A DNA stretch of 64,000 nucleotides from Amoebidium appalachense (GCA_963693365.1 CAVNZM010000009.1:3040231-3104230); one strand, 5' to 3'; positions 7,643 to 61,636 are shown, counted from the stretch's first letter. The notes: generated from the sequence alone by a model not told the origin. Numbers and translations are program-made.

Positions 7643-8928
7643 GCAAAAAAAGAGTCGACAGAACGAACATCAAACATAGTAAGGACGGAAACCCGGACCA
7701 GAACTTATAAGTCTAGAGAAGCAGAAAATAGCTTGAACGACTGGTGGAGGGGATGATAGCTATAGTGCTAACAGCAAAAGTAGTGCCCACAGTCGCTGGT
7801 TCATGAACGTGAAAAGGCAACGTGCATCTGCAGCCAGCAGGCACACGCACAGTGTCACGCACGCACACGCACGCACACACACGCACACAGACACAGACAT
7901 GATCACAGGCACGGACACAGACCAGACAGACAACGCCACATGCACAAAAGCAGGCAACACAAACCTAACCTTCAAAGTTTAACGGCCTTTCAGCCGTTAC
8001 TAGGCGAAGAAGCTGCAGCATGCAGCATAGTCGAAACCATTCAGCACGGTGGCTGCGCGACCTGCGGAGGGCAAAAAAAGAGTCGTCAGAACCAACCTCA
8101 AACTTAGTAAGGACGGAAACCCGGACCAGAACTTATGAAGTCTAGAGAAGCAGAAAATAGCTTGAACGACTGGGGGAGGGGATGATAGCTATAGTGCTAA
8201 CAGCAAAAGTAGTGCCCACAGTCGCTGGTTCATGAACGTGAAAAGGCAACGTGCATCTGCAGCCAGCAGGCACACGCACACGCACGCACACACATACACA
8301 CACACGCACACAGACACAGACACAGACACAGACATAATCACAGGCACGGACACAGACCAGACAGACAAACGCCACATGCACAAAAGCAGGCAACACAAAA
8401 CTAACCTTCAAACGGCCTTTCAGCCGTTAGGCGAAGAAGCAGCAGCATGCAGCATGGTCGAAACCATTCTGAATCAGCACGGTGGCTGCGCGACCTGCGG
8501 AGGGCAAAAAAAGAGTCGACAGAACCAACCTCAAACTTAGTAAGGACGGAAACCCGGACCAGAACTTATGAAGTCTAGAGAAGCAGAAAATAGCTTGAAC
8601 GACTGGTGGAGGGGATGATGGCTATAGTGCTAACAGCACAAGTAGTGCACACAGTTGCTGGTTCATGAACGTGAAAAGGCAACGTGCATCTGCAGCCAGC
8701 AGGCACACGCACACGCACGCACACACATACAATCACACGCACACAGACACAGACACAGACACAGACATAATCACAGGCACGGACACAGACCAGACAGACA
8801 AACGCCACATGCACAAAAGCAGGCAACACAAAACTAACCTTCAAACGGCCTTTCAGCCGTTAGGCGAAGAAGCTGCAGCATGCAGCATGGTCGAAACCAT
8901 TCAGCACGGTGGCTGCGCGACCTGCGGA
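7643..8928. repeat. Tandem repeat, three copies of a ~430-bp unit
   Basis: Units start GCAAAAAAAGAGTCG at ~7643, 8071 and 8504; near-identical with small indels. Confidence 0.95.
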
Positions 8929-9397
8929 TGGGACCTGTGACCAGGCGACTCATCTAGTAAGGATACCTGATGGTCACCCTCTTTATGCTTCCTTCCCCCC
9001 CCCCTCCCTCCATCCCTCTTCCCCCCCGATTCACCAACGCCACTTCTGAATGTCCTCAGCCTACCCTCTTTCAACCCGATTCTTCCTCTCGCTATCTCAC
9101 TCCCTCTTTCTTTTCTCTTCCTGTTTTTTCTGCCTTTTCGAGTTATTACCTATGATACGCAGTATAAGTTTCTTTCTCGTTCTGAATCAGAGAAATCAAA
9201 GGTAAAAGTTTAACTCAGTTGGCATGTGTTATGTTCCTTAGGCAACACCGTACTGATCATTATCGCTTTTTGGGAGCTTTGGCAGGATATATTAAGTTCT
9301 CCTGCTGTACGTATGCCATACTAGTATACCACCCTAGTAGATAAGTCTGTATGGTGCTCTGATGTTGATATTGCCAGGGAAGTTGGGCAGTGGCGTT

Positions 9398-12300
9398 TGT
9401 AAACAGTTGGACTAGTTAGGATAAGGCAGAGTACAACTGAATCAAAATAAAGACAGAGAACGGGTAGAAAGGCACACGCGGCCAGGTTGCGTTTACTATG
9501 GGCCGACTCAGTCTGTCTCAGACTTCACTGATGTGATCCCCGTACTGGGACGGCTTTCTTATATAGCCCCCAGGTTTCGGATCAAGGCCCAGGATTGGTT
9601 CATCCGCGGCCAGCGCGGGTGGCAACATGCCATTCGTGATTCTGGTGCGGTCCGAGCCAGTCAGACCTTTGTCCTATTTATGCAAACCTCTTATTGGTTC
9701 ACTTCGTTTATGTGGTATGCAGCGGAAGAACCATATATGGTTCAATTCTTAGGTCAGAGTGAGTCCTATTGGTGCGGACATAATATTTATGTGATATTCA
9801 TGACAAAGCACGAATCGTGTGCTAGTAGATCACATTCTTTAGTAAACATGTACAGTTCATGTGTACAGTTGTTTACACTCCCCCCCTTGTCAGGAGCCTG
9901 GTGGTGTCGTTAGACAAGCAAACCACCAGGCTGAGAGGCGATAAACAACCTTCAGCGAGAATTCCTGTGCGCCGAGCTGCTGGGCAGAACAGAGCAAGGA
10001 CGGTTGAATAGTGTTGTGCACGTCTATGAGCACTTCTTCATTTGCCAAAACGTAAATTCATGCAGCATTCTTCTGTGATTTCATTTTCGTGGCGAAGATT
10101 ATTGCAGAGTGTGTGCGAATTGTTCGCTTCGTCTCTGTGCTTGGCTTTTCTGTAGAAGTAGTATTTTTCTTTTTGGGAATTTTTCCTTTTTAGGACACTC
10201 CCGCAGATTCGTTTTCAATTGCGAGTAATTTAGTTGTGTGGATGAATGATCATACCAAACATTCGATAATGAATATAACTCAAGCCTTAGGTCACTTCGT
10301 AGCTCAGGTAGTGGTGGATAGCTTCTTAGCGCTGCCCTTTATCCCGGTTCTACCTTAAGATCATTAAGGCGAGTCACCATGGCCAGAAAAGCCACTTCTT
10401 TCATGAACAAAGAGCACTTCTTTCCTTTCAGCTTTAACCCTGCATCATCGGAGCCGGGAATAGCATGAATAAGAATGCCCTAAATGTTCTTCGTTGGGCG
10501 ACATAAAGAAATATATCAGCCCGTCAGAACCAGTAAAAACCCGGTTCATAATTCATAAGAAGAGGGTAGGCAAAGCAAGCCTTCTTCAGAAAACACATGC
10601 TTCCATTCGTGAGCAGTTTTCGTATCCCATTTGCCAGCCATTTTCGTTGAGCAGGGGGATTCCAGGCATAATACATTCTTCTGGAGGCTTGGCCTAAAAA
10701 GAAAAGTCGTCACAGTCGCCCTTTCTTTTGTAAGCAACTTCGTGAGCGCGCTTCGTGTTTTCATATCCTCCAGTGCAGGTCTGGATGGTGCCCCATCCTC
10801 TGCTTCATTTGTAGGTGGCCCTACTGTAGGTTCTGTTCGTTGTGTGGAATACCAAAACCATTCGTATTCGTGGAACTGCTTTGTGCTGTGCTTTCTTTCG
10901 TGTTGGTGTTCATGGAGTTACCCAATTCACACACCTACTACTTTCATACATCAGACGTAAGTAGCTGCCTGGGGAGTGTGTGGTTCGTGTTCGTGGCATT
11001 CTTCTGTTCCTTCGTGAGAAGAATATTCGTTTTAGCAGAGGTGCCCAATAAGGCAGCTTGTGGGGTTGTCTCCCGCATGTGCCCATTGGTGGGGTATGCA
11101 CGTGCTAAATTGTTACAGTGTCATCATATTGCAAGGGAATAACATGGTCACCTCCGTACCAGGGCCTAGGTACACATGATGGTCCGATGTGTTAGTCAAC
11201 AACACCTTGCATTCGTATTCGTATTCGTCTTCCACGTCACTTTCTTCAGTAGTGAAGGAGGGTATTCGTAATTCGAAACTGAAAGGCTTCCAGCCAAAAT
11301 ACTGACGCTGTATGCTGGGGTTGTGAGGGAACGGTGCCCATACCACATTCTTTTGTTCTGGTGGGGGTGTACCGGCAGCTAGTGCAAGGCTTGACAGTGT
11401 AATTGGTATGTTACACCGCATTGCCACAGACGGGCATTCACCTTAAAATTCGTACCCAACACCTTCTTTGTTTTTCACATGCATGAACAAAAGTTCTGCA
11501 TCGACTTTATTACATGCCTTTTGTGCACCAAGAGTGCAAATTCGTTAGGGCGTGGCACCAGGAAGGGCCGCCATACATGAGTCAGGCATATGTTCGTAAT
11601 GTGTTTAGGCATGCCAGCATACATTCATGCGCATGTTGTGCATCCTGTGCGCTAAACTATGGGGCATGCTGTATTCGAGAACAGCAAGGGATTCGAAGCA
11701 TGCATGCAACACTACTTTCATAAGATCTTAGGTCCTACATGCTATAGCAACAGCGACTATCTTCTTCGTTAAGTGCATTTGTGCTGAAAGTGGCCGTGCA
11801 TCTGGCTTGCGAGTGTGGACGTGCATGCGGTGGCATGGACACGATGGCAGTGTGCAATAGGGCAATGCACGCAAGGGCAACGGTTTTATTTTCTTCCTAA
11901 CATAGAGGGGGCTGTGTGCATTGCAACCCAAGCAGTGTTGTGCATTCGTCCTTTCATTTTCGTATTTCCAGTTCATTTTGCTTTCGTTTTTCGTTTTTTG
12001 TCGTTTGATAACTTCGTTACTTCGTTTTGTTTTCGTGTTGCATTCATTTCGTATTTCCTCTATGCAATCGTTTGTCGTTAATTCTTTATTTCATTGCGTA
12101 TTCGTGATGGTTCGTTTTTCGTTGGTTCATTGCTTCGTTAGCAATTCTTTATTCGTTTGTTCGTGTATTCGTTGTTTCGTTGTGTATTCGTTTTTCTTCA
12201 CATTTTTGATGTGTCGTAGCAAAAGAAGTTTTACATGCTTTCAATTCTTTCCGTGTAGGTGGGCTGGCCACTTCAAACTTGTAGGTGTATATATTCTAAG

Positions 12301-12934
12301 CCGGACAAGGAAAGATGTGCCTATCATCGGGGTAAAAAGGATTGTGATCGGCCATGGGAGATTCTTGAGCTGATTGAAAGATGTGAGATTCTTGAACTGA
12401 TTGAAAGATGTGAGATTCGAAGGATGCGAGATTCTTGAACTGCGCGGTCGCCAATGTAAACAGTTGGACTAGTTAGGATAAGGCAGAGTACAACTGAATC
12501 AAAATAAAGACAGAGAACGGGTAGAAAGGCACACGCGGCCAGGTTGCGTTTACTATGGGCCGACTCAGTCTGTCTCAGACTTCACTGATGTGATCCCCGT
12601 ACTGGGACGGCTTTCTTATATAGCCCCCAGGTTTCGGATCAAGGCCCAGGATTGGTTCATCCGCGGCCAGCGCGGGTGGCAACATGCCATTCGTGATTCT
12701 GGTGCGGTCCGAGCCAGTCAGACCTTTGTCCTATTTATGCAAACCTCTTATTGGTTCACTTCGTTTATGTGGTATGCAGCGGAAGAACCATATATGGTTC
12801 AATTCTTAGGTCAGAGTGAGTCCTATTGGTGCGGACATAATATTTATGTGATATTCATGACAAAGCACGAATCGTGTGCTAGTAGATCACATTCTTTAGT
12901 AAACATGTACAGTTCATGTGTACAGTTGTTTACA
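9398..12934 (-). mobile_element. Non-autonomous gypsy-type LTR retrotransposon (3537 bp)
   Basis: Two apparently identical 480-bp LTRs (9398-9877, 12455-12934) with TGTAAACA...TGTTTACA ends; 5-bp TSD GCGTT (9393-9397, 12935-12939); minus-strand PBS TGGCGACCGCGCAG and [14 protein letters not shown]; empty site visible in the paralog near 15038. Confidence 0.95.
10280..11430 (-). pseudogene. Decayed pol remnants (reverse transcriptase fragment and upstream linker)
   Basis: Minus-strand peptides DAGLKLKGKKCSLFMKEVAFL, IMNRVFTG..EEHLGH and DTKTA resemble gypsy RT motifs; many stops and frameshifts; integrase not seen. Confidence 0.7.
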
Positions 12935-13139
12935 GCGTTGTGATAATCATGTTTCCATCGCCGCTGGTGCCACTTTTGTGCTGAACTTTTTAATCGAAAG
13001 AATGTTGATAGGTGTGAGTTTTTATGTCGCGTTTTACCTCTTTCCGTAGTACAGGTGTCTGCTACACTGCCAGTGGCTGGCAATGTGAACACTTTAGACT
13101 TTTTGTTAAATTCTGTTGGTCGTCACATTGAGTATTTAT

Positions 13140-14150
13140 ATGATTATCAAAGAGTATCATGGTACTAGAGCTCTTGAGCCCGGAGGCTGTGCTTCTTTTT
13201 ATATTAGAGGAGTCGTCTATTTTCTTTACAATCGTTGTGTAAATTAGCTACTTATTATATATCCTTCCTCTCGTAACCCTACCACACTAAGTCTTACCGA
13301 TTTTGCAATTCTAACCCCTCCTTATGATATATATAGCTTGGAAATGTTTATTTTATCGCTGGTGACCGTTCTTTGTTTCCATAAAATTTAATGTTTGTGC
13401 CACTTTTGTGCAGAACCTTTTTCTCGTAAACACTTACTAAATAGATGCCATATTTATTTATCTCAGATTATTCCGTTCGAAATTAGAAGACTGGTTTATT
13501 TAGATAATCCTGATATTACTAAGTACGCCTACTAGTATTGACTATCAGGTTGAACCACGGTATGTTTAACGAGTTTTCTGTATGTTACTTGGTTTCATAC
13601 TCAATATCCTTTGCTTCATCGTTCAACAAGTTGTGATAAAGAGTATCATGGTAGGGCTTTTGAGCCTGTGCTTCTTTTTATATTAGAGACTCGTCTATTT
13701 TCTTTACAATCGTTGTGTAAATTAGCTACTCATATTTATCCTTCCTCTCGTAAAACTACCACACTTACCGGCTTTGCAATTCTAACCCCTCCTTGTGATA
13801 TAGCTTGGAAATGTTTATTTTGGCGCTGGAACCTTTGCTTCCATAAATGTTTGTGCCACTTTTGTGCAGAACCCTTTTCTCGTAAACACTTAGATAGATG
13901 TATTTATTTATCTCAGATTATTCCGTTCGAAATTAGAAGACTGGCTTATTCAGATAACCCTGGTATTACGTCTATTGACTATCTGTTGAACCACGGTATG
14001 CTTAACGAGTTCTCTAGGGTGTATGATTATTTAAATCGTTATCTCCTCCGTATCCGAGAGTGAGGGCTTTTATATTTTCTTCTCCGAGATATCGGTGATA
14101 TCTCGAGGGCTTCTATTTTGCTGAGCATATCAATAAAGACATTATAAAAA
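13140..14150 (+). mobile_element. Two tandem LINE ORF2 3'-end fragments (subfamily B)
   Basis: 13140-13600 and 13630-14060 are paralogous; peptide LFWRWNLCFHKCLCHFCAEPFSRKHLDRC...SIDYLLN; followed by AATAAA and an A-run at ~14133-14152. Confidence 0.65.
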
Positions 14151-14154
14151 AATG

Positions 14155-15290
14155 GTGTTCAGGTATCTCAGTATGCACTTGCTACTGGATAACTCGTGAA
14201 GTTTTTTTTATTGTCTTCTCAGTATGCCGTGCGTACTTGCATATCTTTCCGTCGAATAAATCCAGTCAAAAGAAAAAAAAAATTTTTTTTTCACTCAGTG
14301 TTCAGGTATCTCAGTATGCACTTGTTACTGGATAACTCATGAAGTTTTTATTAACGGGAGTCTGTGATCCATCCTGCGAACCTTCTTCTCTACTATAAAA
14401 CTTTTTTACGGCCGACTTTCGAATATGGACTTCCGCTATTGGCCTGCGCCCCCACCTCGTGAGGCGGCCGTGGCGCTGAAAGAGTTCGACGATTTTCAGG
14501 GTACTGCGCTGCGCACTTTGTTTCGTACTCGGTTTGTGCCTCCCTTAATCAGTATGTTTGGATTGTCGTCTGCTGTTTGTCGTATGGAGGAATTGTCTCT
14601 TCGTTTTTGTTTTCATCTACTAGTTAGGATACCTGATGGTCACCCTCTTTATGCTTTCTTTCCCCCCCCTCCCTCCATCCCTCTTCCCCCTCGATTCACC
14701 AACGCTACTTCTGAATGTCCTCAGCCTACCCTCTTTAAACCTGATTCTTCCTCTCGCTATCTCACCGTGCTCCCTCTTTCTTTTCTCTTCCTGTTTTTTC
14801 TGCCTTTTCGCGTTATTACCATACGCAGTATAAGTTTCTTTCTCCTTCTGATAGAGAAATCAAAGGTAAAACTCAGTCGACATGTGTTATGTTCCTTAGG
14901 CAACACCGTACTGATCATTATCGCTTTTTGGGAGCTTTGGCAGGATATATTTCTCCTGCTGTACGTATGGATACCACCCTAGTAGATAAGTCTGTATGGT
15001 GCTCTGATGTTGATATTGCCTGGGAAGTTGTGCTGTGGCGTTGTAATTTTTTGTTTTAATCGCCGCTGGTGCCACCTTTGTGCTGAACCTTTTAATCGCA
15101 AGCATGTTGATAGGTGTTTGTTTTTATGTCGCGTTTTACCTCTTTCCCTACGGGTGTCTGCTACACTGGCTGGCAATGTGACCACTTTACACTTTTTGTT
15201 GAATTCTGTTGGCCGTCACATCGAGTATTTATATGATTTTCACACAGTGTTCAGGTATCTCAGTATGCACTTGTTACTGGATAACTCGTG
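14155..15290 (+). mobile_element. LINE 3' tail fragments followed by a 5'-truncated LINE copy (subfamily A)
   Basis: LLYYKTFLRPTFEYGLPLL (~14382-14440) matches the non-LTR RT thumb motif; C-terminal CHLCAEPFNRKHVDRC; shared 3' sequence GTGTTCAGGTATCTCAGTATGCAC at 14155, 14298 and 15248; tail AATAAATCCAGTCAAAAG(A)n at 14256-14282. Confidence 0.75.
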
Positions 15291-16137
15291 GGGGTTTACA
15301 CACTTTAAATTTACTGCGTGGACACTGCCAGAGGCCCAGCCACATTCGACGGCCTACTGCCGTGCGTTTTCCAGCGCAGCCAATCAAATGCAGCCAGTGA
15401 CATATGTACATGCTAGGCAACAATGAGCGCCATCGTAGTATTATGCCACCCCTATTACATATTATGGGTAAGCAGAGGCTAGCATACGGGCCTGTTTGGC
15501 AACCCGGGTTTAGGGTCCTAAATCCGGATTACGGGCGATTTTGGGTTTAGCGCTAAATCCAAATCTCAAAATCCAGCCGCTGCCAAACAGACGGCCAGAT
15601 CCGGTCACGTAAATCTGGGTTTCAAACCCCTCGGACATGGCCGTAATCTGGATTCCACTAATCCACCTCGGGAGGTGGATTAGCGCGAAATCCTTTCAGG
15701 TCCTGAATGTCCGACCCAATGAATGTTCATTTTATGGAACTATATATGGTGTCCTTTTGCACCAATCGTCGATAGTTTGAAGTGGCCAAAAAAGGATTGT
15801 TGAAAGGGCGCCAATTTCTTTCTTTTTTTTTGTTATGGTGTGGGCGGGGGGATAGTGCAAGAAACATCTTTTACGTGTAGAAGTGAGTATGATGTAGTGA
15901 TCACCGTTTGAAATCATTGTTTTAGTGTTCGGCCTCGCCGCCTGGTGCAGCATTAGTAGGAATACAAAAGTACTCAGAATGACCTTTGCAACATCATGTG
16001 CAGAAAGGTGTGTGTGTGTGCAGTTTTTTTCTTTTCTTTTACCTACTATCTTTCTTTGAGGGGGGGGGGGGGGGGGGGGGGGGGACGGGGGACGGGACGG
16101 ACACATGTCACTGCACGATTCAGTGCTCATTTACTAT

Positions 16138-20544
<4,407 letters not shown>

Positions 20545-21074
20545 GGTGAGTGTCTCAAATAAAACCGTATACAACTCAGCACTTTCGTGGTTTATTACTG
20601 CTTATCACTATGGTGTATATGTGTAGCGGGTCTGCAATTGCAAGTCACCGACCGGTGATGAACAGCGTGACAGCTGCAGAGCAAATCTAACCCGAAATCG
20701 TACGTGGGCTGTTTGGCATCCATGGGTTATCTACCCGGCTTAACCCAGGTTTCGGCTGAGATCCGGATTCTGCAGCATAATCTGGATCTCGATTTTGATA
20801 TCCAGATATCCCCCGAAATCCAGATTACACTAACCCGCGTTGCCAAACAGGCCCTTAGGTAGCTCCGAAAGAAAGTTAAGGCACCGGATCACAATATCAT
20901 ACTGTGCAGCATGAATAAGGTGATCTAGGATAGTCATCTTAAAACGGATATATTGAGGAAGAGAGGAGGAAAAGAGAATGGCCACCAATAACCTCCGGTT
21001 CTACTATGTTAGCTAACAGGTTGCACTTATTGATAGATATGCAGCCGCGAGTAAACCGCCCCCCACACATATTA

Positions 21075-28266: not shown

Positions 28267-38708
<10,442 letters not shown>

Positions 38709-39811: not shown

Positions 39812-53429
<13,618 letters not shown>

Positions 53430-54254: not shown

Positions 54255-54498
54255 ATGGCCGTGGATCACCGGGAGGCTTATTTCTCCTGTAGGCACAAAC
54301 ACCTAATCTTTGTGGGCTGTGCCAGCCCGGTTGCCGGGTAACAGCCCTCCCTTCCCCCTCCCTCCCCCCTTCCCCCCCCCCCTCCCCCCCCCCCCTCCCT
54401 CCTCCCCCCTCTTTCCCCCCCCCCCTCCCCCCTCCCTCTTTCTAGCTTTCTAGTTCACGTACACACACAGAGAGAGGCCCATATAAGAGAGAGAGAGA

Positions 54499-54532
<34 letters not shown>

Positions 54533-55898
54533 CATGCAACCGGGCCCGAGCACACACAGTTACACAAAGGCACATGGACACACACACGGACGCTTGTCCT
54601 TTCCCGCCCAGTCCGTTACCCATCCCTCTGATTTCTCTTCGTCCCATACACTGGGAAAGGATACCAAATGGGGGGGGGGGGGGGGGGGGGGGGGGGAGGG
54701 GGGGGGGGGGGGGGGGGGGGGGGAAGAGGGGGAGGAGGGGGGTATGGGGGGAGGGGGGTGGGAGGGCGGGGGGGTGGTCACCTCCCTGCAAAGATCTAAC
54801 AACCATGCTCCTCTCCCCCCTCCCCTCCCTCCCCCCACTCCCTCCCTCCCCCCCCCCCCCCCCCCCTCCCCCCCCCTATAGGCTGCTCTTCTGCATCATC
54901 TATTCCCTGATGTATAACTTTGATGATGTCAACAACACACACTGTAAGGTATGTAGCGTCACGATCCCCTGTGGACCTCCCCTGAGAATGGGCTCTACTT
55001 ATTATGCATCCTGTTAATGTGTGATTTGCACTCTGCATGGTGTTGTCCGTTGCTAATGTGTACTTCGTAATTTATAGAGCATTCAACCCCCCCCCCCCCC
55101 CCCAAAAAAAAAAAAAAAACCCTCCCCTGCCCTCGGGGAAAAAAAAAAAAGAAAGATTAAAAAACAGACCTTAACCAAGGAAAAAAACAAAACAAAACAA
55201 AGGAGAAGTACAGAGACTGGTACGGGATTGGGCAATCGACAGAAGGAACAGGGGACTAACCAGATCAGAATCCCGGTAGGGTGGTATATAGTAACCAGTA
55301 GGCCAAATGCCCGGGAGCTTTCTTTTCTTTTTTCCTTTCCTTCTTTCTTTCTTTTCTTTTCTTTTTTTTTTTTGGAGGGGGGGCGGGGGGAGGGGGGTCG
55401 TCCTTGGGGGGAGGGGGAGGGGGAAAAAGAGGGAGGTTTACAAAATCTCTAGAAAAGCAACGTCAATACAAACGAAAAATATAGGGTAAAAGAAAATAAA
55501 AAATGGATGCCTACATACTTTGTATGAGCCTCTCTCCCTGCGGGGACGGGCAGGGGGATGGCCAGGGTGAGTCAGGTTTGCATGGGTGGGTGAGTGGGGG
55601 AGGCGGGAAGGGGGGGGGGGGGGGGGGGGGGGGGGGCAAAGGGAGGGGGAGGGGAGAAGGGGAGGAAGGGGGAAGGGGGGGAGAGGTGGAGTGGGATAGG
55701 GAGGGGGACCGGGGGGGGGGGGGGGGGGGGGGGGAGGCATGTGAAAAGTGCAGAAGACAACAGATTGTGTTGCGTAGCAAAAGGCATCAGAGAAAATAAA
55801 TGGAAGAAAAGAAAAAAACAGTAGGCGCAAGGTGGGGGGGGGGGGGGGGGGGGGGATGCATATAAAATACACACACACACACACATGTATATTAGAAG

Positions 55899-55965
<67 letters not shown>

Positions 55966-55989
55966 GGTTATATATCGCACGCGTGCGCG

Positions 55990-56034
<45 letters not shown>

Positions 56035-57986
56035 CGAGAAAAAGAGACGTATTAACCCCGCATGCACGTGCAGGTAGCCAACATTGTACCCTCTCTCAGC
56101 AGCTGCATCGGCAACCACCACCCGCAGGTCTATGTGTGGCGCATGGCTGTGGCTGTCATGCTGGGCCAGAGGCTGGTCGATAGCTTTGCATACCACACAT
56201 ACCTCAATGTATGTATATCAATTTCCAAGTTCCCCCATTGCATACCACACATACCTCAATGTATGTATATCAATTTCCAACTCAACCCATTGCATACCAC
56301 ACATACCTCAATGTATGTATATCAATTTCCAACTCAACCCATTGCATTCCACACATACCTCAATGTATGTATATCAATTTCCAACTCAACCCATTGCATA
56401 CTACACATACCTCAATGTATGTATATCAGTTTCCAACTCAACCCATTGCATACCACACATACCTCAATGTATGTATATCAATTTCCAACTCAACCCATTG
56501 CATTCCACACATACCTCAATGTATGTATATCAATTTCCAACTCAACCCATTGCATACTACACATACCTCAATGTATGTATATCAGTTTCCTACTCAACCC
56601 ATTACTACCACACATACCTCAATGTATGGATATCAATTTTCCAACTCCCCCCATTGCATACGTACCTCGCATACCTCTATATAGGTGTATTGCCTTCGAA
56701 CCCTCCTCCACAGCATACCACACATACCTAAATGTGCGGATAGCCACCTCTTCCCTGAATGCCACACATAAATCAATGTGCGTATATCGTCTCGGATATT
56801 CCCTTTTCATTGCATACTCCATTTACCTCAATGTGCGTATATCCCCCCCCCCCCCCCCCCCCCCCGCCCCCCCCTCCTCCTCCTCCTCTCCCCCCACCTT
56901 AAAATTTATTCTTATTGTGCTACTGTGTTGTAGACAGAGGCCTGGACGAGCTAGGAACAAGCATTGTGAGGCAGAGATAGTAATGGGAGTAATGCCCCCC
57001 TCCCCCCGCCCCCTTCCCCCTCTCTCTCCCCCTCCCCTCCCTCTCTCCACTGCCCCTCCCCCCCCCCCTCCCCCCCCCCCCCCCCCCTCCCCTCCCCTTC
57101 TCTATAGGTTAGGGAGTCGGGGAGCTTTGTAGAAGCCCGGCTTATGCTCTATCTCTCTGCTTGCTTGCTTTGTTTTCTTGTCTGCTTGCAGATTTTGTAG
57201 ACTCTGCGTTCTTAGATTGCTGCTCCTTGAACAACCCTGCTCGTCTTTGGCCAAGACGGGTGGACTCGCCTATTGCTGTTGAAACAAAGTATGGGTTGGG
57301 AACCACGCACGAGAGGTTAAAGAGTCGAAAGCCATGCTTTTGTGGAGGCAAAGGAACCCCCCTGATGATGGGCTCTGTTCAAGTGTCTTCTGCCTGCACG
57401 CTTAAATTGCTTGATTTTGGATTTCCCACCTTTGTGACGCTTTGTTGTTGCTCTTTGTTGTCTCCTCCATATTTCCAACCCTCTAACGCATACATCACCC
57501 CCCTCCCCCCCCCCCCCCCCCCCTGGAAGAGGGGGGAAGGGAGGGGGGAGGGGGAGGGACGAGGTAAATAGGTAGGAGGTTATGGATGAACTGGAGGGTG
57601 AGGGAAAGGGGGGGGGGGAGGGAGGGGGGGGAAGGGGGGGGGGGGGGGGGGAGAGGAGATGTATTAGGTTGGAAGGTACGGAGAAGTGGGGGGGAAGGGG
57701 GGGATGAGTAAAGGGAAAGAGGGGGGGGGGGGGGGGGAGAGGGATGAGTAAAGGGAAGGGGGGGGGGGGGGGGGGGAGGGGGGGGGGGGCAGGTAGAATA
57801 GGTTGAGGGGGTTGGAGGAGTCGATAACGGGAAAAACATGAATTCGACCCGTTTTATTGCTCCACCCACTTCAGATTCTTTCCCTCTCTCTTCCACCTTG
57901 CAACTTCAACCAACCCCACTTAACCCCTCTCTAGTGCCCCCCCTCCCCTCCCCCCCCCCCCCCCCCCCCCCCCCCCGTTTCCAACC

Positions 57987-58035
<49 letters not shown>

Positions 58036-58864
58036 CAATAACAATAACAATAATATTAATAATAATAGTAATAATGGTAATGATAATAATGATAATAATG
58101 ATAATAATAATAGTGATAATATTAATAATTATAATAATAATGATAATAATAATAATGATAATATTGATAATGATAATAGACAGGCACACCAGAGCCACCA
58201 CTACCTCCAACAGGACCACGCACCCATTTGTCCCTACTTCTCACACAATCAAAAGTGCAAACAACCCGCCCTCACCCCCTCCCCCCCCCCCCCCCCCCCC
58301 CTCCCCTCCCTTGAATCAGATCCATTCTATTAACAAGAACATTATTAACACCTAGAACAATAACAGTAATAATTACATCATAACAACAACAACAATGACG
58401 ATATCACCAACATTCTCATCAACACTAACAACAACAACAATAACAGACTGGGCCTGTTCGCCGCTCAACAACAAAAACAATAATAATTGTATGCATAATC
58501 ATAGCAACCCCAACATTATCATCAAAACTAACAACAACAACAACACCAGACAGGTCCCGTTCGCCGCTCGACCTACCACCATTCCCTCAACCACCTCCAC
58601 CTCTTTCTCATGCTGACAGAAAACATGGCTCTTGTTCTTCTCACCTACGTTTCCTCCACCGAAAACCACCCCGTTCACGTAGCGGCGTTCACGACTTTCA
58701 TCACGTCGTCGCAGTTGCACATGGGGCTACTTGCATACCTGTACAAACTGAGCAAGGGCGGTATGATGATTGAGGAAGAGCATAGGTCTTACAGGTATGC
58801 GCTTCTTGCATCCCCCTGCTCTTTGTTGTCTTCTCCATATTTCCAACCCTCTAACGAATACATC

Positions 58865-58897
<33 letters not shown>

Positions 58898-61137
58898 TTC
58901 GAGGATGCATTGTGTTGTTCGTCATAAATGTGCACTTCTAGTCTGTAACACATTCTTACCTTACACCCCCCCCCTCCCCCCGTATGGGGTAATGACATAT
59001 AAAATTATAAAAAGGTCCAAGATAAAGACGTAAAATTAAGATAAGTATTGATAATTTAGGTGCAATAGCAAACAATGTTGTTTGAATAGTAGGAGACCCT
59101 TGATACACATCCGGAGTCCTGCACTGGTGTGCTTCTCTTTGTGTGCGTCCGTTTCCGTTTTTTTCAATTTACCAGATTTGGGAGGTCACACACAAGCACC
59201 ATTTTTCCTGTTCGTGTTTGTCGTCACTTTTGCATTTCGACTCATCGTAGCTTCTTCCCCCCAAATTGGGCTTGGACTCGACTTATGACTCACACTTCTT
59301 GTGTGTGCTTTGCAAAACCTACATTGTATTGTTTGTCGAGAATGTGTATTTCGTACTTTGTAGCAGATTTTAAGTTCCCCCCTCCCCCCTCCCCCCTCCC
59401 CCCTCCCCCCCTCTCCACCCATCCCACTCCCCCCGCCTCCCCCCCTCCCCTCCCCCCCCCCCCCCCCCCCCCCCCACACACACACCCCCTTCCATCCCCC
59501 CCCTCCCCCCGCCCTCCACACACACATACACAACTTAACCTACGCGAGCAAATCAAATGTGCAAGGCTAGCCTCATTCCATCGACGAAAATGCATCTCTC
59601 ACTCTTTCTCCGAAACCCCCCCCCCCCCCCGCTTTGCATTGCCTTGTCCGACTTGAGTGTCCATTTCGTGCTCTCAAAACCCTCCATCCCCCCCCCCCCC
59701 GCTTTACTTCCATGCAACCGGGCATGGTTGCTCTGTGTCGTGCATCTGTAAGCACATACACATTTTTCGCTGCACTGCATTAGTTTGCACACACATCTTC
59801 ACCGTTTTGCTCACCTTGCTTGCATAAGCAACCCTGCTCGTCTTTGATTAAGACGGGTTGACCCTCCCAAGTTCAGTTGATGCTGCTGTCTGAGTTGGAG
59901 AGTCGTATATACGCGGGCTAAGGGGTCGAAACTCAGACGCAATTGATGACTTGGGCCCTCCCTGAGGATGGGCTCTGCTTATTACGCATACTGTGCGCAT
60001 GGCTTATGTTGCATACTTGAATGTTTGCCTTTGCATGTGTCCTGCACCTTGCTTCTCATCGTGTATGCGTACTTCGTACCGTGTTCCGCATTCAAACCCC
60101 CCCCCCCCCTCCCCTCCCCGCCGCCTTCCTCCCCTTAGCCGGATGCATGATATATGTAGTGTGTGGGTGCTAACTTATGTGCATGGGGCAGGTGGAAGCT
60201 GCAGTGTCTGCAGGTCAATGTGACGGTGATGGCTCTGGCCTGCTACCTCTACTACAGACACAACACCTACTGCGAACCTTACAGTACGTTACCCCCTCAT
60301 TCACCACTTACACCAACTTGTGCACACACGCAAGCACATACAGACTCGCATGCATACATGCAGACACACACACGAACACCCGGACATGCACACATCCACA
60401 CCGCATGTGCGCACGCACAAGCACACACACTGCCTCACATGCGCGGATGCAGACGCACACACCCTTGCACACGCGAGCACCCAGACTCGAACGCATGCTT
60501 AAACATGTGCGTGCGCACACGCACACATAGACACAAACTCGCTCACTCACACACACTCACTATCTCACTATCTCCCAGAGCCGACCATGAACTTACTCCC
60601 GCTCCCCCCCCCCCCCCCCCCCCCCCCCTCCCCATTGCGTTTTATCTTGCCCATATTTTCGCCTTTTCAACTTTCCCCCCCCCCCCCCCCTCCCCCCCCC
60701 CCTTCTCCCCCACCCCCTCCCCCCCACCCCCCGGCACCCCCACCCACCCATCCTCCACCCCTCCCCCTCACACACGCACACACAAACACACATGCTTTGC
60801 TCCCTCTTTCTACGCATTCTTGCCCTATCAAATCACAACCACACACCTACCAATAATCATAGATCCACAAGGAAGCAATTAATCACATATATAGAGACGT
60901 GCTCGTGTTTATGCACATATGCACGTACGGCGTACAAGTGAGCTGAACTGTCCCCCTCCCCCCCCTCCCCCCCCCCCCCCCCCCCCCCACCCACCCCCAC
61001 CCCCCCTTCCTTCTCCGGCTCCCGTGACTTCCCTGGGACCGGTGTTGCTTGTGTTGTATGCTACGTTCACACTGTGTTTCTGTGCTATTTTCTTGGCTGT
61101 TGGTTCTCATTCCTTAAATCGTAGCAGTACACTCCAA

Positions 61138-61230
<93 letters not shown>

Positions 61231-61434
61231 CCCTCCCGGCTGCCCTCCATATTTCCCCCCTCCCCTTGCTAAAACACACACACACACACACATGCACGCA
61301 CGCGCACACGCACGCACGCACACACGCACACACGCACGCGCACGCACACGCACACGCACACGCACACGCACACGCACACGCACAAGCACACGCACACTCA
61401 CACGCACACGCACACGCACACGCACAACGCACGT

Positions 61435-61509
<75 letters not shown>

Positions 61510-61636
61510 GTACAGCCTGTTCAGCAGCTGTGAATGGACGGTTGTTTTTTCCAACATCTGGTACCACTACAGCGCAGTTTTGGACTTTGCTGATTGCAAT
61601 TTGAGTTTTGGCCCATCGCCTATGTCACGGCCATAA
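54255..61636 (+). CDS. PGAP2: Post-GPI attachment to proteins factor 2 (Frag1/DRAM/Sfk1 family), 249 aa, 6 exons
   Basis: Exons 54255-54337, 54882-54948, 56074-56208, 58550-58794, 60192-60283, 61509-61636 (750 nt, all GT-AG, in phase). Motifs THCKVANIVPSLSSCIG, PQVYVWR, ENMALVLLTYVSSTEN, YYRHNTYCEP, YSLFSSCEW..V.SNI.YH. Confidence 0.93.
54975..55010 (+). ncRNA. 3'-terminal remnant of the hammerhead-like element
   Basis: CCTCCCCTGAGAATGGGCTCTACTTATTATGCAT resembles CCCTCCCTGAGGATGGGCTCTGCTTATTACGCAT at 59956-59989. Confidence 0.5.
56187..56840 (+). repeat. 52-bp minisatellite (~9 good units, then degenerate) built from a PGAP2 exon/intron junction
   Basis: Unit TGCATACCACACATACCTCAAT|GTATGTATATCAATTTCCAACTCAACCCAT; the first unit overlaps the last 22 nt of exon 3. 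Confidence 0.95.
57226..57383 (+). ncRNA. Full copy of the hammerhead-like structured element
   Basis: 8-bp closing stem, CTCGTCTT/AAGACGGG hairpin, long irregular duplex, GAAA at 57327-57330, CTGATGA at 57362-57368. Confidence 0.6.
57985..58180. repeat. (AAT)n-type microsatellite
   Basis: Directly visible. Confidence 0.95.
59824..59982 (+). ncRNA. Full, divergent copy of the hammerhead-like structured element
   Basis: Closing stem ATAAGCA/TGCTTAT; same hairpin with a different loop; GTCTGAG-TT-GGAGAGTC, GGGGTC-GAAA-CTCAGAC, GGCCCTCC-CTGAGGA-TG-GGCTCT. Confidence 0.62.

Follow-up and report, generated by a model that had tools for sequence, protein, structure and literature searches.

In the genome of the ichthyosporean Amoebidium appalachense, a unicellular relative of animals, a stretch of 64,000 nt (GCA_963693365.1 CAVNZM010000009.1:3040231-3104230; herein the window) contains an intronic element of 159 nt (59824-59982, + strand) that carries the core motifs of a hammerhead ribozyme in an unusual strand order. 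An initial annotation proposed a pseudoknotted or obligately dimeric hammerhead, which raises the question of whether the locus encodes a ribozyme, how its catalytic core would be assembled and what kind of repeat carries it. The element is a real, conserved structured RNA with the full hammerhead core in non-circular order. Judging from its sequence, we consider it probable that it has a new, split-core, non-circularly permuted hammerhead topology, that this is the overlooked ribozyme of Naiad-type elements, situated at their 3' end, and that it would cleave after U59896. The parts of the element are as follows.

59824..59830, + strand: 5' strand of the closing stem P0; pairs with 59976-59982 (pair probability 0.83-1.0).
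59832..59834, + strand: CCC, 5' strand of the clamp helix; pairs with GGG at 59970-59972, right after CUGANGA-U.
59837..59857, + strand: inserted hairpin of 8 bp with a 5-nt loop, directly 5' of G10.1 (probability 0.95-1.0).
59860..59864, + strand: helix II 10.x strand (strand d; G10.1 = 59860); proposed partner 59923-59927.
59866..59879, + strand: strand e of the joining helix, which links stems I and II at their far ends; partner strand k, 59940-59955 (14 bp, 2-nt bulge).
59888..59895, + strand: helix III 16.x strand (U16.1 = 59895); pairs with 59931-59938 (8 bp, probability 0.85-0.87).
59896..59897, + strand: predicted cleavage site after U17 (GUU triplet 59894-59896), placed by the hammerhead consensus.
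59897..59902, + strand: helix I 1.x strand; pairs with 59956-59961 (4 bp, a mismatch at 59901, 1 bp).
59923..59931, + strand: helix II 11.x strand and GAAA (G12-A15.1 = 59928-59931).
59962..59969, + strand: CUGAGGA (C3-A9) and a U, which likewise follows A9 in type-SGC ribozymes (see below).

Read 5' to 3', the first half thus consists of P0, the clamp CCC, the 8-bp hairpin, d, a spacer, e, an 8-nt loop and the helix III strand; the second half continues with the GUU site, helix I, a linker, helix II with GAAA, helix III, k, helix I, CUGAGGA, U, GGG and P0. Two further full copies lie where the initial annotation had placed them, at 57226-57383 (+) and 48591-48748 (-), as does the first at 59824-59982 (+), and all three contain all 15 core bases (C3-U4-G5-A6-N7-G8-A9, G12-A13-A14-A15.1, U16.1-H17). 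In the 59.8-kb copy, helices I, II and III can all be drawn, as claimed, in register with the core (4, 5-6 and 8 bp). Helix I, drawn earlier over 8 nt, is present but shorter, because G59954-55 belong to the 14-bp helix, and what had been described as an irregular duplex of about 25 bp is in fact two helices, the 14-bp one with its bulge and the 8-bp helix III, joined by an 8 x 1 loop. The free position of CUGANGA is G in the 59.8-kb copy (59962), U in the other two (57362 and 48612) and A in a fragment (35999), in agreement with the earlier reading; a second fragment, at 55.0 kb, departs from it, reading CTGAGAA with G8 lost. In the 59.8-kb copy, a perfect 10-nt palindrome (59904-59913, +) in the linker that separates helices I and II could seed dimer formation; it is not conserved, the 57/48-kb copies having a 4-bp hairpin at the same place.

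A descriptor specifying U-H, CGAAA and CUGANGA in this order, with in-register helices, retrieves exactly the three full copies from the window. In 150 windows shuffled in 400-nt blocks it gave three loose matches, one of them with a helix II of at least 5 bp and none strict; with the core motifs fixed and the remainder shuffled, none of 20,000 sequences matched. These chance figures are generous, because the descriptor was tuned after the element had been seen. A comparison with Rfam, suggested by the initial annotation, gave no match on 59700-60100 at E up to 10 and, at E up to 1, 114 weak matches across the window, none of which overlaps a full copy: the element is not an Rfam family, and no match to a small nucleolar RNA (snoRNA) or short interspersed nuclear element (SINE) explains its motifs. 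Since the Rfam hammerhead models fix the strand order, that they miss the element is as expected. Loci from a pattern scan in viral contigs (three and two) and metagenome contigs (31) had no blastn match to the repeat and were judged to be chance.

Pair changes were compared between the two subfamilies (59.8 versus 57/48 kb) and counted by coordinates, because MAFFT alignments were one column out of register in the center. The closing stem keeps pairing while its sequence changes, as had been noted, with three of eight P0 pairs altered on both sides; an eighth pair, broken in the 59.8-kb copy, is restored by the majority letter in public runs (T59983>G). Helix III has two of eight pairs altered on both sides, one on one side and one broken (G.G in 57/48). 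In helix I, one of six pairs is altered on both sides and three are broken in at least one subfamily. Both-sided changes also occur in one of five helix II pairs (d with the GAAA-side strand) and in one of four compared pairs of the I-II joining helix (e/k). The stem of the inserted hairpin is invariant between subfamilies and its loop variable. These pair counts also bear out the G.G mismatch next to the core and the weak helix I reported for the 57/48-kb copies (helix I 3 bp, helix II 5 bp, G.G at pair 2 of helix III).

Natural variation in public sequencing runs points the same way. At a threshold of 2%, 25 positions of a 396-nt stretch vary, and seven are inside the element; six of these lie at unpaired places (loop, spacer or mismatch), leave a wobble pair intact, or agree with a compensating letter found elsewhere. 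They are 59849 (hairpin loop), 59865 (the 1-nt spacer 3' of strand d; T/A/G), 59901 (the helix I mismatch, never G), 59956 (wobble retained), 59959 (matching the G-C pair of the 57-kb type) and 59951 (T>G, matching a partner change in the loose-end consensus; unlinked, agreement 0.76). Nested folding of the 59.8-kb copy gives a rod with P0, the hairpin, e/k and helix III at probabilities of about 0.7-1.0, apart from one e/k end pair at 0.31. Folding z-scores are near zero for the whole unit, and -2.8 (59.8) and -0.8 (57.2) for the core; a nested model is unable to score the pseudoknotted topology of the element. As isolated duplexes, helices I and II together amount to about -18 kcal/mol, against 6.3 kcal/mol for freeing the strands, loop costs not counted.

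How would such a core be put together? Eckert et al. 2023 (PMC10085705) divide the hammerhead into blocks S, G and C, and their type SGC (HRIMA-1), with the order site-GAAA-CUGANGA, cleaves in vitro at 0.007-0.19 per minute. The order UH-GAAA-CUGANGA of the Amoebidium element is therefore non-circular, as first proposed, but not new; the new point is a break of the core at helix II. In the SGC-1 and SGC-2 oligonucleotides, read by eye from the table, a U follows A9, helix II has 5 bp, there is one spacer base, and the I-II joining helix directly abuts helix I; the two SGC alignments are recorded as coming from soil RNA, the opposite strand carrying a hairpin ribozyme. The initial annotation saw an upstream GACYC strand as a competitor for helix II. 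The roles are probably the reverse: GACYC is the better partner, beginning with G10.1, showing the both-sided change counted above, and being followed by a variable 1-nt spacer and the joining helix exactly as in SGC-1 and SGC-2. We regard it as the most likely helix II partner, and therefore the backbone would be interrupted between A9 and G10.1, with a short helix and a hairpin spanning the gap. Put differently, the element appears to be an SGC cycle in which e and helix III are joined and the chain opens at A9/G10.1 instead, an opening that, in the model, would be held by the clamp, the hairpin and P0. Eckert et al. assume block C (CUGAnGA) to be uninterruptible and A9-G10.1 continuity to be necessary, insertions of one or two nucleotides at this step being known.

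An identical layout recurs in Naiad Penelope-like elements. Craig et al. 2021 (PMC8557442) describe Naiads as having no canonical hammerheads, some being flagged 'HHR_core' or 'HHR_half_core'; this lack has been taken as a sign that the ribozyme is dispensable or parasitic. At least 8 of their 54 Naiad consensus records have, close to the 3' end, the clamp, hairpin, d, spacer, e, site, GAAA, k, CUGAUGA and clamp partner in this order (Naiad_Bfor, Amil, Aacu, Anas, Obim and Ovul, named by the header after each and the order of the metadata, plus two more near parts 12 and 19). These eight represent five unrelated sequence types, and their stems are unrelated to those of Amoebidium. All eight have a helix II of 6 bp, with a single mismatch in Aacu; helix I, likewise of 6 bp, is reduced to 2 bp in Bfor and mismatched in Aacu. 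Lengths range over 4-11 bp for helix III, 5-15 bp for the joining helix and 3-10 bp for the clamp. In all five sequence types the strand after CUGAUGA cannot form helix II; only the upstream strand can. At least seven more records, from nematode and spider, have type CSG, the same cycle with block C intact, with long joining helices (Naiad-2_Nbra, Naiad-3_Nbra, Naiad_Hpol, Naiad_Smim, two near part 13 and one near part 15); in Eckert et al. (PMC10085705) type CSG comprises two sequences. Rearranged hammerheads, SGC-like split core and CSG together, thus appear in at least 15 of the 54 Naiad consensi, and the reported lack of canonical hammerheads in Naiads becomes directly testable. These counts are lower bounds from motif sampling, the matches listed being places 26-50 of 62 in one search. 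They leave out one unclear match each near part 25 (a degenerate split-core candidate) and part 26, and several near parts 16-19, where places 10-19 of 23, 25 and 43 motif matches were listed. Records near parts 16-19 appear to have CUGANGA after a C run and GAAA upstream, and one seems to have a local hairpin in place of helix II. Among the matches listed, no Chlamys record has the split-core layout, and Physarum records look canonical with a long loop II.

The Amoebidium element occupies the middle of a longer repeat (about 360-400 bp), of which blast and tail profile searches found 11 pieces in the window, three full copies and eight 3' fragments, six of the fragments being added by these searches. 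The remaining two had been reported before and are present as placed (35955-36018 and 54972-55002).

59701..60097, + strand: ribozyme-bearing copy, flanked by two C-runs, in intron 4 (58795-60191); 5' limit approximate, numerous public contigs extending beyond the repeat's ends.
57136..57497, + strand: second-subfamily copy, structured part 57226-57383, with G15.2.G16.2 mismatch and 3-bp helix I; intron 3.
48478..48847, - strand: second-subfamily copy, structured part 48591-48748, stacked behind a different C-run-terminated tail.
35938..36075, + strand: 5'-truncated copy, beginning about 6 nt 3' of the predicted cleavage site.
54966..55087, + strand: 5'-truncated copy with CUGAGAA (G8 lost); intron 2.
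47623..47725, - strand: 5'-truncated copy, starting inside the 3' strand of P0.
59285..59376, + strand: tail-only fragment.
58800..58965, + strand: two stacked tail-only fragments (58800-58866 and 58901-58965) with a C-run between them.
45440..45502, - strand: tail-only fragment of the 57-kb type.
32464..32526, + strand: diverged tail-only fragment (tail profile, E 5.7e-6).
59984..60097, + strand: 3' tail, common to the 5'-truncated fragments, with a C-run at its end.
54255..61633, + strand: host gene, Frag1/PGAP2-like, six exons, to which the spliced product P0001 was mapped (Amoebidium parasiticum record in EukProt).

The pieces have common 3' ends, 5' truncation and a C-rich microsatellite target: at least 14 C occur in the next 20 nt on the piece's own strand in 8 of 11 cases, against a background of 3.9%. 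Tails are stacked in the window, and public runs contain head-to-tail joints within single contigs. The repeat is high-copy, with 5,253 matching contig pieces in one public DNA run and 13,857 in another; their summed depth is 0.1-2 million versus 10-40 for single long contigs, a depth that does not equal copy number. In the window the copies are dispersed rather than in tandem arrays of type I hammerhead units, and their strand order is not that of type I. Exon mapping confirms that the 55.0-, 57.2- and 59.8-kb copies are intronic, as annotated, on the sense strand of introns 2, 3 and 4 of the Frag1/PGAP2-like gene. From these properties the repeat is likely to be the 3' untranslated region or pseudo-long terminal repeat (pseudo-LTR), or a non-autonomous derivative, of a Naiad/Chlamys-type Penelope-like retrotransposon; it behaves like Naiad/Chlamys 3' ends, and we treat its membership as a candidate assignment. 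Further 3' tails ending in C-runs, with no ribozyme seen, lie at 48890-49080 (-), 61022-61139 (+) and 59631-59688 (+); such tails stack head to tail with the hammerhead family, and possibly there are more families with the same target.

Complementarity, covariation and the insertion pattern can be read from the DNA, and from them we infer a folding pathway, docking and cleavage. The RNA would first fold as a rod closed by P0; the loop with the cleavage site and GAAA would then dock on the CUGANGA end via helices I and II, the clamp helix and hairpin replacing the backbone step A9-G10.1. Mg2+-dependent cleavage after U59896 could follow, with products that would remain paired via about 30 bp. 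In this way tandem or read-through transcripts might be cut into unit RNAs, which a Penelope-like reverse transcriptase would copy into (C)n tracts, starting at the C-rich 3' end. The truncated copy at 35.9 kb begins just 3' of the predicted cut, which fits as a single case. The 57/48-kb subfamily is likely to be slow or dead.

If the element cleaves, docking within one molecule would be only slightly more probable than a strand swap involving two tandem copies. On the 3' side, helix III and the joining helix are separated by a single base; the corresponding link of SGC-1 has zero length and SGC-1 nevertheless cleaves (PMC10085705), so the geometry leaves monomer versus dimer undecided. We place the swapped dimer near an even chance because the links are also short in unrelated Naiad versions and because Penelope hammerheads are described as acting as dimers in tandem copies (in the available parts of PMC6765202 and PMC6155905). 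On this modeling an obligate dimer is possible. More doubtful is a bolder proposal, namely that a seventh hammerhead topology, opened at A9/G10.1 and rebuilt by two extra helices, is ancient in Penelope-like elements with an N-terminal endonuclease, in hosts ranging from ichthyosporeans to octopus. In this proposal cleavage would require a strand-swapped dimer, in which one copy docks its site/GAAA loop on the CUGANGA end of the next. Were this true, tandem pseudo-LTRs would be sensed, and solo intronic copies would be harmless to host pre-mRNA.

A number of observations weigh against the split-core ribozyme. Cleavage itself is a prediction, and among the 12 of 21 junction starts listed from public runs none lies at 59897 (those listed include 59700, 59742, 59874, 59929 and 59956). 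The preferred model puts G10.1 (59860) and A9 (59968) about 100 nt apart, with A9-G10.1 continuity absent. Pairing energies for the alternative partner GGCUCU versus the upstream strand are -7.2 versus -10.9 in the 59.8-kb copy and -8.7 versus -8.0 in the 57.2-kb copy. The clamp is an invariant helix of 3 bp with a probability of 0.19-0.24 in the nested model, and the docking-ready scaffold lies 6.3 and 4.2 kcal/mol above the minimum free energy. Covariation counts are small because the window holds only two independent full sequence types; the variant 59844 T>C breaks the terminal pair of the hairpin; and the lack of variants in the 15 core bases is uninformative, having a chance probability of about 50% with seven variable sites in 159. 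The 57/48-kb subfamily has left two recent copies (95% identity across about 390 bp) even with its G15.2.G16.2 mismatch and a helix I of 3 bp, so an intact core is not needed for spread. The Naiad records were read by eye, and the 3' ends used for the C-run count were chosen by eye at C-run borders. Neither a reverse transcriptase nor an open reading frame (ORF) with an N-terminal GIY-YIG was found in the window (Pfam on 140 of 167 low-repeat ORFs, and a motif scan), and five short Amoebidium motifs had no match in the available Craig supplement, with no alignment made; the Naiad/Chlamys link consequently rests on architecture and insertion pattern.

Three other explanations deserve weighing. 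The best survivor, which we hold to be unlikely, is a hammerhead-derived RNA that does not cleave and was retained to serve the element's reverse transcriptase as a signal for binding or packaging. The spread of the 57/48-kb subfamily despite its G.G next to the core, the sense-strand position of several copies in introns of a spliced gene and the preference of nested folding for the non-docked rod would all suit it. Against this, unrelated sequences, from ichthyosporean to octopus, retain CUGANGA with a free N7, GAAA, NUH and helices I and II in register, a conserved core that a binding signal would not need, and the related SGC and CSG forms cleave (PMC10085705). Slightly less likely again is an ordinary type-SGC hammerhead with an intact block, its helix II formed by GGCUCU (59971-59976) after a 2-nt insertion and GACYC serving as a decoy or switch. 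GGCUCU can form six of six pairs in both subfamilies at an energy similar to that of the upstream pairing, and insertions of this size have precedent; its changes, however, are one-sided with an invariant partner, the bases 3' of it cannot build the helix joining stems I and II, and none of the five Naiad sequence types can pair the strand after CUGANGA with the GAAA-side strand. Box C/D snoRNAs have a 5' box C (RUGAUGA), a 3' box D (CUGA) and tandem G.A pairs. That the element is a SINE derived from a box C/D- or kink-turn-type snoRNA, its UGAUGA/CUGA boxes merely resembling a hammerhead core, is very improbable: there is a terminal stem, CUGAUGAUG in the 57/48-kb copies holds both box motifs and the clamp region is extendable by U.U and G.A pairs, but Rfam gave no match (in the ranges stated above), the 59.8-kb family has UGAGGA instead of UGAUGA, the box is at the 3' end in reversed order, the opposing strand CUGC has no kink-turn A, and GAAA, NUH and helices I-III are left unexplained.

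Elsewhere in the window, exon 3 of Frag1/PGAP2 has its 3' end, donor site included, duplicated many times as a 52-bp tandem repeat (56186-56843, +). An RGS-domain gene (RGS, weak RGS_DHEX) has exons at 32889-38705 (+), between which the 35.9-kb fragment lies. Three tandem units of about 430 bp at 7652-8931 have no conserved hammerhead on one strand; their GTCGAAA was rejected as a hammerhead motif, as no conserved CUGANGA lies on the same strand. Partly tandem repeats with ORFs at 8954-15426 (+) have no Pfam match, and these ORFs presumably resemble the C-terminal part of ORF2 of a long interspersed nuclear element. Broken DDE_Tnp_4 (Harbinger-like) transposase pieces lie at 18856-20601 (-), and a 350-codon open frame with a signal-peptide-like start lies at 40058-41110 (+), with no Pfam family and no homolog found.

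A literature search covering few subscription journals found no split-core hammerhead, permuted Naiad hammerhead or Amoebidium-repeat ribozyme. The available portions of bioRxiv 10.64898/2026.07.22.740005 and PMC13159263 (Naiad and hammerhead, 2021 on) describe no such ribozyme, and Penelope, SINE and ribozyme are not mentioned in the accessible main text of the Amoebidium genome paper (PMC11244446); PMC13725137, as far as available, cites Weinberg et al. 2015 for hammerhead variants with additional helices. If correct, our reading would add a hammerhead topology beyond the six that Eckert et al. considered possible (PMC10085705), outside that set because the CUGAnGA block was there assumed to be uninterruptible. 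It would also carry non-circular permutations beyond soil metatranscriptome RNAs into one of the major transposon classes of eukaryotes. Because standard descriptors and Rfam miss rearranged forms, ribozymes in genomes may be greatly undercounted, and RNA design would benefit from a place inside the catalytic core at which whole helices are tolerated.

Comparison with known systems places the element as follows. It resembles the non-LTR retrozymes and type I hammerheads of Penelope elements (PMC7229834; bioRxiv 10.64898/2026.07.22.740005; PMC6765202) in being a short non-coding repeat of a few hundred bp with a hammerhead and a Penelope tie. The topology of those is type I, and they form tandem arrays and dimerize through a short stem III; the Amoebidium element has a long stem III and dispersed copies in the window, and a swap in any dimer would involve helices I and II. 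With Naiad/Chlamys (PMC8557442) it shares 5' truncation, microsatellite targets ((C)n in Chlamys, whose elements target (C)n/(CA)n and are frequently 5'-truncated) and very high copy number; unlike them it has no ORF found with it in the window, five short motifs from it had no match in their consensi, and its host, an ichthyosporean, is absent from the Craig et al. lists available. The pseudoknot-containing hammerhead (Zhan et al. 2024, PMC11300833) likewise has an extra helix, with long-range pairing filling the helix II role; there A9, G10.1, C11.1 and G12 belong to one short stem-loop, whereas in the Amoebidium model G10.1 is on a separate strand well upstream of A9. The closest relative is type SGC (PMC10085705), listed from soil RNA where ours is a nuclear DNA repeat. 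Both have the site-GAAA-CUGANGA order, the U after A9, a helix that connects stems I and II (spacers of 1 and 0 nt), and a closely linked stem III. The linkers in Amoebidium exceed the published SGC descriptor (19-22 nt versus 0-8, and 17 versus 0-15), with block C split. In SGC, CUGAnGA is continuous with its helix II strand and the opening lies between the joining helix and stem III, whereas the Amoebidium element would be closed at that link and open at A9/G10.1, where a clamp, a hairpin and a closing stem take the place of the backbone.

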